Shown here one piece after another: positions 27,098-28,006 of a stretch of 64,000 nucleotides of DNA. How positions within the stretch are numbered: position 1 is the first letter of the stretch; each line of letters begins with the position of its first letter. The stretch comes from Berkelbacteria bacterium GW2011_GWE1_39_12 (GTDB lineage: Bacteria > Patescibacteriota > UBA1384 > UBA12157), in NCBI GenBank assembly GCA_001029735.1, contig CP011213.1:396613-460612 (forward strand), given 5' to 3'. The notes below the pieces were generated by a model. It searched no databases. It was given only the letters and a program-made list of their open reading frames with translations, and had not been told where the DNA came from. The position numbers were made by a program, and so were the translations under genes.

Positions 27098-28006
27098 TTA
27101 AGATGTCCTTCCTGCATTAACCGCGGCGGAAATTTCGGCCAACTCCTGAGTAATACTTCCTTGGCGAATGCTGTTATATGTTAATTCTAAATCTTCAATT
27201 AAATCGTCGGCGGCATCTGTTGCGTTCTTCATAGCCATCATTCTGGCGGATTGTTCCGAGGCGATCGATTCCAAAATCATTTGGTAAAACTGGGTTTCAA
27301 TAATTCTCGGCACAATATAGTCAATTACTTCTTGACAAGATGGTTCAAACTTGAAATTTACTTCGTCATTGCGAGGAGCCGAAGGAGACGCGGCAATCTT
27401 ATCATTGTTAGATTGCTTCGCTTCGCTCGCAATGACATCGTTATTAAACGGAATTAATTGTTTCAATTCTGTCTTCTGTTTAATGGTTGATTGAAATTCT
27501 GTGTAGCAAACGGCGACTTCTTTATAAATATTATTGGTAAAATCAGTTCTGGCTTGGGTGATAATCGGAGCGACGTCGTACTCTTTGGCGTTGATTGGAA
27601 AATCTGTATAAGCACCAATTACGTTTTTTCCCAGAGCGGAAAGTAGTTTCTGGCCTTTCTTACCAATGGCAATAATATCTGTCTCCGGATTTGCTTTGAT
27701 ATATTCCAAGGCTTTGCGAATCACTGAAGTGTTATAAGACCCGCACAAACCTTTATCTGATGTCACAACGATCAAAAGATTCTTTTCTTTCGCCTCATTG
27801 TTAGATAATAAAATATGATTACAGCTTTCATCTCTCTGTAAATTACACAAAACTTCATATGAAGCGGTCGCATAATCACGGTTTTTAACGGCCGTGTCTT
27901 GCGATTTTTTCATCTTGGAAGCGGCGACCATTTCCATCGCCTTTGTAATCTTGGCGGTGGAACCAATCGCCTTAATTCTAATTCGTATTTCCTTGGTGTT
28001 AGGCAT
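27098..28006 (-). CDS. atpG: F0F1 ATP synthase subunit gamma (contains an in-frame palindromic element)
   Basis: The [32 protein letters not shown] start and the C-terminal helix are conserved. Element insertion at 27365-27434. Confidence 0.85.
27365..27434 (+). repeat. palindromic element family A, full copy, inside atpG and translated in frame
   Basis: gtcattgcgaggagccgaaggagacgcggcaatcttatcattgttagattgcttcgcttcgctcgcaatgac. It encodes [25 protein letters not shown] in the gamma subunit. Confidence 0.75.

Follow-up and report, generated by a model that had tools for sequence, protein, structure and literature searches.

A palindromic element of 72 nt was found in frame within atpG, the gene for the F1 gamma subunit of ATP synthase, on a 64 kb stretch of DNA (the window, to which all positions refer unless another locus is named) from an uncultured Berkelbacteria bacterium. 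By a rough gene model about 86% of the window is coding. The insert is probably a passenger copy of a dispersed hairpin doublet of the Ssn type, tolerated in a permissive loop and not native to the gamma subunit.

The element in atpG and its repeat family

The element reads GTCATTGCGAGGAGCCGAAGGAGACGCGGCAATCT TATCATTGTT AGATTGCTTCGCTTCGCTCGCAATGAC on the plus strand. Its termini, GTCATTGCGAG and CTCGCAATGAC, are complementary at 11 of 11 positions and stand 50 nt apart. The element boundaries coincide with codon boundaries, and the 24 residues encoded (191-214) are free of stops and frameshifts. An initial annotation had described a complete palindrome with both terminal inverted repeats, translated as about 24 extra AtpG residues, with the frame kept on both sides and a length divisible by three; all of this was borne out. 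It had placed the element at 27365-27434 with a length of 70 bp, of which the start was correct and the length and end were 2 nt short. The residues ahead of the insert had been given as FPFNN, for which the sequence reads IPFNN; the protein context is LIPFNND before the insert and EVNFKFEPS after it. The genomic flanks are ttC/GTCAT...ATGAC/Atc, the slashes marking the ends of the element.

The neighbours of atpG are atpA and atpD, within a complete atp operon. Gamma chains from the PDB matched the protein with E down to 4e-50, and the database form of AtpG comprises 326 residues from a start at 28078. The identical insert-bearing protein was recovered on 12 contigs; these belong to ENA, JGI, NCBI and Logan assemblies, made from different samples. 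Since these contigs were assembled independently, the assembly chimera that had been named as grounds for dropping the claim is excluded, and the internal frameshift named beside it is contradicted by the open frame. As RNA the element was folded at -31.8 kcal/mol (z = -4.4). No Rfam family was matched by the element, either at gathering threshold on the whole window or in E-value mode on 27300-27500.

Hairpin units were located with a pattern of GTC, a hairpin (foot AT...AT, at least 5 bp) and C, and the counts were compared with random sequence of the same composition. The window contains 18 such units against 1.7 expected, mostly arranged as convergent pairs, which stand at six places. The terminal 11-mer, allowing one mismatch, was found 10 times against 0.82 expected, and 0 of 100 shuffles reached 10. 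The copy at 45479-45526 is 88% identical to the atpG element over 48 nt, and its segment at 45479-45512, in valS, is nearly identical to the long atpG unit.

The basic unit is a hairpin of 24-40 nt made up of a pyrimidine, GTC, a stem foot ATTGC...GCAAT and C. The interior is variable, self-complementary and often of the form GC-GNA-GC. Two inverted units with a short spacer form a palindrome of ~70-85 nt. Unit statistics were pooled from 270 units across many phyla and flank statistics from 124 doublets. The stem foot pair was T:A in 262 units, C:G in 6, T:G in 2 and C:A in 0. The commonest interiors were CG-N-AGCGAA (GC-GNA-GC) with N free (A 35, C 33, T 12, G 8), the form known from a very stable mini-hairpin of DNA, d(GCGNAGC). 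The inner segment of the short atpG unit, CGAAGCGAA, is the commonest variant (35 of 270 units, from many phyla). In the doublet at 30831 one half has the foot ATCGC...GCGAT and the other ATTGC...GCAAT, so that the change is compensated within its own half; doublets may also join units with unrelated stems (ATTCCGGA, ATCCTGAA, ATCCCGGA). The evolving entity is therefore the unit and not the whole palindrome.

The flanks of the 124 doublets gave the consensus Y/GTCAT...ATGAC/R, with C before GTC in 88 and T in 28. Beyond these positions nothing was conserved or duplicated, and direct repeats were absent at the 16 doublets inspected; the elements thus lack a target-site duplication. Doublet lengths modulo 3 were split 50/37/37 and so are not confined to multiples of three. 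A single unit is open in five of the six frames, and doublets are open in ~3 of 6 on average compared with 2 for shuffled sequence. Four of the 10 elements in the window are intragenic and all four keep the frame, the tsaD copy being entered in a different frame from the atpG copy.

Genome and viral collections were searched with a strict doublet pattern, GTCATTGCGAG-N35-65-CTCGCAATGAC. At least 120 loci were found in the species-representative genome collection and at least 120 in the viral-contig collection. Among the genome matches listed were many Bradyrhizobium and sphingomonads, together with Pedobacter, Mucilaginibacter, Flavobacterium, Chloroflexi, Planctomycetota, one cyanobacterium, Deltaproteobacteria, Coxiellaceae, Rickettsiales including Candidatus Tisiphia, Patescibacteria and two Berkelbacteria. 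A Novosphingobium megaplasmid carries the pattern at no fewer than 40 places. Location within a long open frame is an unreliable sign of an intragenic element where GC is high, as in Bradyrhizobium, since chance alone gives long frames without stops there, and in-frame cases outside the Berkelbacteria genome were accepted only where the genome was low in GC and the protein could be aligned to a solved structure. ATTGC-type doublets were found in frame in the GMP synthase GuaA (L038 4466-4543, peptide VIARPRSGAAISKNSEIASEGAPRND) and in UvrA (L043 2835-2921, peptide VIASKAKQSHSTGSANNGIATSPLAPRND), both in low-GC metagenome-assembled genomes labelled Gammaproteobacteria. Each insert corresponds to a 25-28-residue gap against the solved structure. 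A literature search returned nothing specific on in-frame palindromic elements in the candidate phyla radiation, and the terminal 11-mers matched only primers by chance.

The insert-bearing loop of the gamma subunit

The initial annotation had proposed placing the insert by alignment with a known gamma subunit and looking for relatives that lack it, and both checks went in its favour. The insert forms a gap in the alignment to the solved E. coli gamma subunit, and likewise to that of Chloroflexus. Five Berkelbacteria-type relatives (P0004-6, P0008 and P0009; 64-74% identical) have a 14-residue loop at this place, for example QPEEGETCQIDRIN. In a survey of 120 gamma homologues the loop ranged from 12 to 38 residues and was the most length-variable part of the subunit. 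In a metagenome scan for close AtpG relatives, conserved motifs dominated the matches, and the relatives recovered were all of at most 43% identity, none with an intragenic unit.

An AlphaFold (AF2) model of the gamma subunit was built on 75 sequences, with a mean pLDDT of 90 and a pTM of 0.82, and was superposed on solved gamma subunits with a TM score of ~0.8. The 10-residue blocks covering 191-220 average 50-66 in pLDDT. In the model the insert sits between the strand 177-185 and the C-terminal helix 224-301, where it appears as a low-confidence surface loop outside the conserved gamma fold. The 24 inserted residues are predicted to be hydrophilic and probably disordered.

The same loop is occupied by other doublets in relatives. 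The closest relative found (L001, protein 86-89% identical) carries a different doublet of 74 nt, GTCATTGCGAGCAAAGCGCC...CTCCTCGCGATGAC, inserted 19 nt past the conserved Pro-Phe codons as compared with 9 nt in the window. This doublet is entered in frame 2 and read as CHCEQSAFRHTAISDRHVVNTPRDD (CHCEQS..TPRDD). A second relative, L002, has a sister-type doublet, GTCATTCTGAG...GAATC, read as RHSEMVTEESP...TTVQDD, and only the right half of a peptide of this type is kept in P0003. Among 80 more distant Patescibacteria atpG loci no unit was found within atpG; in some, including L138 and L143, doublets lie directly beside the gene. Because L001, L002 and the window carry different doublets, the gamma loop has been filled on at least two independent occasions, and probably on three. 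Most simply, this loop would be the only part of gamma in which such an insert does no harm; a preference for insertion into or next to an existing copy is conceivable as well. The three independent inserts of 24-30 residues, in the window and in these relatives, mark the loop at the rotor foot as one that tolerates large additions, and amount to a natural experiment on gamma.

Proposed link to Ssn repeats and weighing of alternatives

The NTS hairpin repeats of Neisseria are defined as CGTCATTCCCGCGMAVGCGGGAATCYRG, of the form CGTCAT-palindrome-ATCYRG (Chenal et al. 2025, PMC11893778). Ssn-related motifs (SRM) are hairpin repeats of 20-50 nt that occur across phyla and flank ssnA genes, with Rickettsia, Wolbachia and Sphingomonas among the genomes with >300 motifs; SsnA is a 94-residue single-domain GIY-YIG protein whose binding to the hairpin requires single-stranded DNA and which cuts a few bases upstream (PMC11893778). 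Cutting needs the three bases before the palindrome, and the C after the palindrome is the most important position for binding (PMC11893778). The units described here have the same layout at precisely these positions, with (C)GTC before the hairpin and C closing it. All units start with GTC-AT, preceded in most of the 124 doublets by C or T, in keeping with the non-G base that the SRM pattern has ahead of GTC, every unit ends in GCAAT-C, their length falls within the 20-50 nt of an imperfect SRM palindrome, and the copy number in the window lies far above chance. They are also present in hundreds of copies in many phyla and, at the four Bacteroidota-type loci described below, flank a single-domain GIY-YIG gene of ~95-100 codons. 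They differ from NTS in the stem, which is ATTGC..GCAAT here and ATTCCCGCG..CGCGGGAAT in NTS, and in location, with four of 10 elements intragenic here against 2% for NTS (PMC11893778).

The association with a nuclease gene was observed at four Bacteroidota-type loci. At L314, L335, L336 and L337 a single-domain GIY-YIG gene (97-102 aa) is flanked on both sides by units of the type GTCATTGCGAG..GCAATC, some 21 of the 27 units lying within ~300 nt of the gene. The gene at L314 is the sole GIY-YIG gene in 1.1 Mb of viral-collection loci chosen for the doublet, has units within 100 nt on both sides, and encodes a protein identical to a 98-aa protein of Flavobacterium beibuense. The other three loci (L335, L336 from Tamlana, L337 from Flavobacterium litorale) were homologues obtained by protein search and have the same flanked arrangement. 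With all four loci flanked, the ATTGC unit type has, in Bacteroidota at least, the defining layout of the Ssn system, a nuclease gene between two repeats.

The most likely history would run as follows. Doublets would spread through a single-stranded DNA intermediate, with an Ssn-type GIY-YIG nuclease acting in trans, and would land anywhere in the genome. In a gene-dense genome the copies expected to survive would be those in spacers and those that are in frame, free of stops and placed in permissive surface loops. The surviving atpG copy would be one of the latter. It sits in the variable loop that joins the final strand of the globular domain to the C-terminal helix, and would be transcribed there and translated into 24 hydrophilic residues, probably disordered, whose presence the enzyme would tolerate.

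Several observations weigh against this explanation. The published SRM string, HGTCWYN(0-2)YYVSBRHN(0-5)WNVSBRGN(0-2)RNCYNB, had no match in the window; neither the two atpG units nor the consensus unit fit it, whereas an NTS example does. Past the closing C the atpG units continue with TTA/TAA and not with YRG as NTS does. No unit-flanked GIY-YIG gene is present in the window, where the only GIY-YIG gene is frameshifted, unflanked and 24% identical to the unit-flanked Flavobacterium enzyme. Its intact homologues on three Patescibacteria contigs (70-75% identical) stand beside tRNA genes and are likewise unflanked, as are the GIY-YIG genes on three alphaproteobacterial plasmids (Sphingomonas, Acidiphilium and Xanthobacter). 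Movement of repeats by Ssn nucleases would also have to be assumed, the motif-ssnA-motif arrangement having been raised as a domesticated mobile element by way of hypothesis only (PMC11893778), and that the insert is translated and that the enzyme works normally with it are both predictions.

Other explanations were weighed against the same evidence. These repeats seem to be drawn to the atp operon or kept there: 10 of the 18 units of the window fall within 5.3 kb (25652-30903, from the atpD/atpC to the atpH/atpF spacer), which is 8% of its length, and L001 has seven units in 6 kb of its atp operon. It is possible, if unlikely, that doublets of candidate-phyla bacteria, far from being randomly scattered, gather in the ATP synthase operon and are retained there through an action at the nucleic-acid level, as recombination barriers to incoming single-stranded DNA or as intercistronic mRNA hairpins, and that the filling of the gamma loop reflects selection; the gamma-loop copy would then be an intragenic member of a functional cluster. 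Co-option of the peptide itself, with an extended loop at the gamma foot selected for coupling to epsilon and the c-ring or for regulation of ATP hydrolysis, in the way of the phototroph-specific gamma insertion, and the repeat serving as raw material, was judged improbable. Three related lineages do have an enlarged loop at the same place from different doublets, a HMMER alignment to chloroplast gamma breaks at residue 188, which suggests that the phototroph insertion lies in or next to this loop, and the insert ends three residues ahead of the position aligned with E. coli gamma Tyr205, a residue reportedly in contact with epsilon and the c-ring. However, the inserted peptides share nothing beyond what the DNA repeat dictates and are read in three different frames, nearer and farther relatives do well with a loop of 14 residues, the AF2 model gives the insert no confident structure, and identical peptides occur in the unrelated ValRS, TsaD, GuaA and UvrA.

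Mobility of another kind would account for some of the same features. A REPIN-type origin, in which a pair of REP hairpins is moved by a REP-associated tyrosine (Y1/HUH) transposase and not by a GIY-YIG nuclease, would account for hairpins that are short and conserved in their 5' flank, for their pairing into inverted doublets of 70-90 nt, for units standing alone and for the lack of target duplication, and a parallel between Ssn repeats and both IS200/IS605 and REP/BIME has been drawn (PMC11893778). It is nevertheless an improbable origin: REP sequences are species-specific, whereas one and the same atpG-type unit recurs in different phyla, the 5' flank reads GTC, like that of NTS, and not GTAG, and the only unit-flanked gene found encodes a GIY-YIG protein, at all four loci, no search aimed at Y1 transposases having been made. 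An origin as a conventional MITE (miniature inverted-repeat transposable element) of a DDE insertion sequence with the same terminal inverted repeats would explain the small size and the perfect 11-nt termini and is very unlikely given the missing target-site duplication at the inspected doublets and in the flank statistics, the compensation of foot changes within a half and not between the termini, the mixed stems of the doublet at 25652-25718 and the existence of solitary units. Removal of the 72 nt before or after translation in the manner of an intron or intein, which would leave a normal gamma subunit, is a highly improbable solution. The stable RNA hairpin is in its favour, and rRNA genes with insertions are a known trait of candidate-phyla bacteria. 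An excised insert would need no frame, so that frame retention argues against it: all six intragenic insertions (in atpG, valS twice and tsaD here, and in atpG of L001 and L002) keep the frame and lack stops, although element lengths are not in general multiples of three. There was also no Rfam intron or ribozyme match, and 24 residues are far too few for an intein. Repeats can mislead assemblers, and the chance that the insert is an artefact of assembly or binning is negligible in view of the 12 independent contigs and of the relatives with inserts at the same site.

Other features of the window and comparison with known systems

Table 1. Repeat elements and genes of the window referred to in the text
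Feature	Position	Strand or length	Details
atpG, ATP synthase F1 gamma subunit	27098..28006	-	302 aa from MPNTKEIR; Pfam PF00231 (ATP-synt) E = 5.6e-81
Palindromic element, head-to-head doublet	27365..27436	72 nt	read on minus strand as V191-D214
Long hairpin unit	27365..27398	+	GTC-ATTGC-GAGGAGCCGAAGGAGACGCG-GCAAT-C; from hairpin-unit scan
Spacer between units, 12 nt	27399..27410		loop of long hairpin in RNA fold
Short hairpin unit	27411..27436	-	GTCATTGCGAGCGAAGCGAAGCAATC; inner segment CGAAGCGAA
Sister doublet, in frame in valS	45479..45553		ValRS 591-615, VIASNSEAISNNDWIAASPSASRND; gap vs T. thermophilus ValRS 1GAX
Short copy, in frame in valS (one unit + degenerate terminus)	45924..45967		..DVIASQQAKQSCDDK..; ValRS 442-466 unmatched vs 1GAX
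Doublet, in frame in tsaD	47977..48049		..VMSLRASAKQSLNPSIDRHGLWPHDDE..; TsaD 286-316 unmatched vs T. maritima TsaD
Intergenic doublet, atpH/atpF	30831..30903		left unit with compensated foot ATCGC...GCGAT
Intergenic doublet, sister stem types ATTCCGGA + ATCCCGGA	28598..28675		atpA end of 670-nt atpA/atpG spacer
Intergenic doublet, sister stem types	28141..28209		atpA/atpG spacer
Doublet, sister stem types	25652..25718		atpD/atpC spacer; terminal ATGAC overlaps annotated atpC start codon
Intergenic copy, degenerate right arm	10241..10325		11-mer search
Solitary unit	7253..7282	-	just past terminator-like hairpin
Single-domain GIY-YIG gene	598..841	-	frameshift at A8 run near 765; Pfam PF01541 E = 3e-14 on repaired reading

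The annotated ATG of atpC (25652-25656) comes from the terminal ATGAC of a unit, and the true start may be the following Met, six codons in. The atpA/atpG spacer (28007-28677) measures ~670 nt against 56 nt in L001. It is bounded by 38-nt inverted repeats (28035-28072 and 28639-28676), contains two hairpin doublets and, within 28237-28539 on the opposite strand, an open reading frame for a predicted membrane protein of 85 aa with no Pfam match; the whole looks like a composite insertion into the operon. A second family of small palindromes, with the core TCCGCCAGCTGGCGGA, was found at 26980-27003, 48829-48852, 50176-50205, 34235-34258 and 25466-25489. It is read as PPAGG within atpD (counterpart in L001 ..EIETPNGKLTLE..) and within tsaD (..IENPPAGGENGIR..), where the stretch corresponds to a 7-residue gap against T. 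maritima TsaD.

The GIY-YIG gene of the window stands directly upstream of tRNA-Ser (492-581) and is a candidate relative of the Ssn nucleases. Its frameshift is probably real, since the same truncated product of 72 aa is found on 2 database contigs. It was considered as the cognate nuclease of the repeats and rejected, being frameshifted and unflanked, with three intact homologues unflanked as well. A tblastn search of plasmids with this gene found nothing. The intact Patescibacteria homologues lie immediately upstream of a tRNA gene. Three partial copies of a tRNA-Ser-like 5' end (GGAGAGGTCGCATA...) were located at 880-1070 on the minus strand, upstream of the GIY-YIG gene, and look like remnants of several integrations or duplications at this tRNA gene. 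A hairpin CCAGCC-YWR-GGCTGG recurs beside the tRNA-linked Patescibacteria GIY-YIG genes (~885-900 in the window; L126 and L127) and may be a repeat tied to this nuclease subfamily. Upstream of the Sphingomonas plasmid GIY-YIG gene a long palindrome of another family (GGGCTTCGACTTCGCTCAGCCTGAACGG ... CCGTTCAGGCTGAGCGAAGTCGAAGCCC; L212 2841-2991) may represent a further nuclease-repeat pairing.

For annotation, peptides such as VIAS...APRND in metagenome proteins, being derived from the repeat, should not be mistaken for lineage-specific functional motifs. A very common type of unit escapes the published SRM string.

The insertion of phototroph gamma subunits, a beta-hairpin at residues 198-222 of T. 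elongatus, is functional (PMC8390522). Like the atpG insert, it lengthens gamma where the globular domain gives way to the C-terminal helix. It is conserved and structured, whereas the atpG insert is repeat-derived, unconserved in close relatives and predicted to be disordered. REP and REPIN sequences and the present family alike consist of short hairpins whose 5' flank is conserved, seem to replicate as inverted doublets and favour intergenic sites. They differ in that REP sequences are species-specific and tied to a Y1 transposase, while the atpG-type unit is conserved across phyla and, at the loci tested, tied to GIY-YIG genes.

The closest precedent is provided by the Rickettsia palindromic elements (RPE), described as palindromes of ~150 bp, in ten families, placed in frame in many housekeeping genes of Rickettsia (Ogata et al. 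2000, 2002, summarised in PMC10969869). As far as these descriptions go, both are dispersed palindromes in frame in unrelated housekeeping genes of a small, gene-dense genome, with the repeat-derived peptide placed where the host protein tolerates it. In the window this is seen in atpG, valS (twice) and tsaD, that is four insertions in three genes within 64 kb. Compared by description, the elements differ in size and host, at 72 bp in Berkelbacteria of the candidate phyla radiation against ~150 bp in Rickettsia. The exact type of doublet seen in atpG is carried by a Rickettsiaceae genome, Candidatus Tisiphia (L078). Protein-coding palindromes, known from Rickettsia, are thus extended to the candidate phyla radiation, and the tie to Ssn/NTS repeats offers a candidate enzyme where the mobility of such elements has lacked an explanation for 25 years. 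The atpG insert is a known type of event in a new lineage and not a new kind of biology, and its element family can be linked to a known enzyme class.

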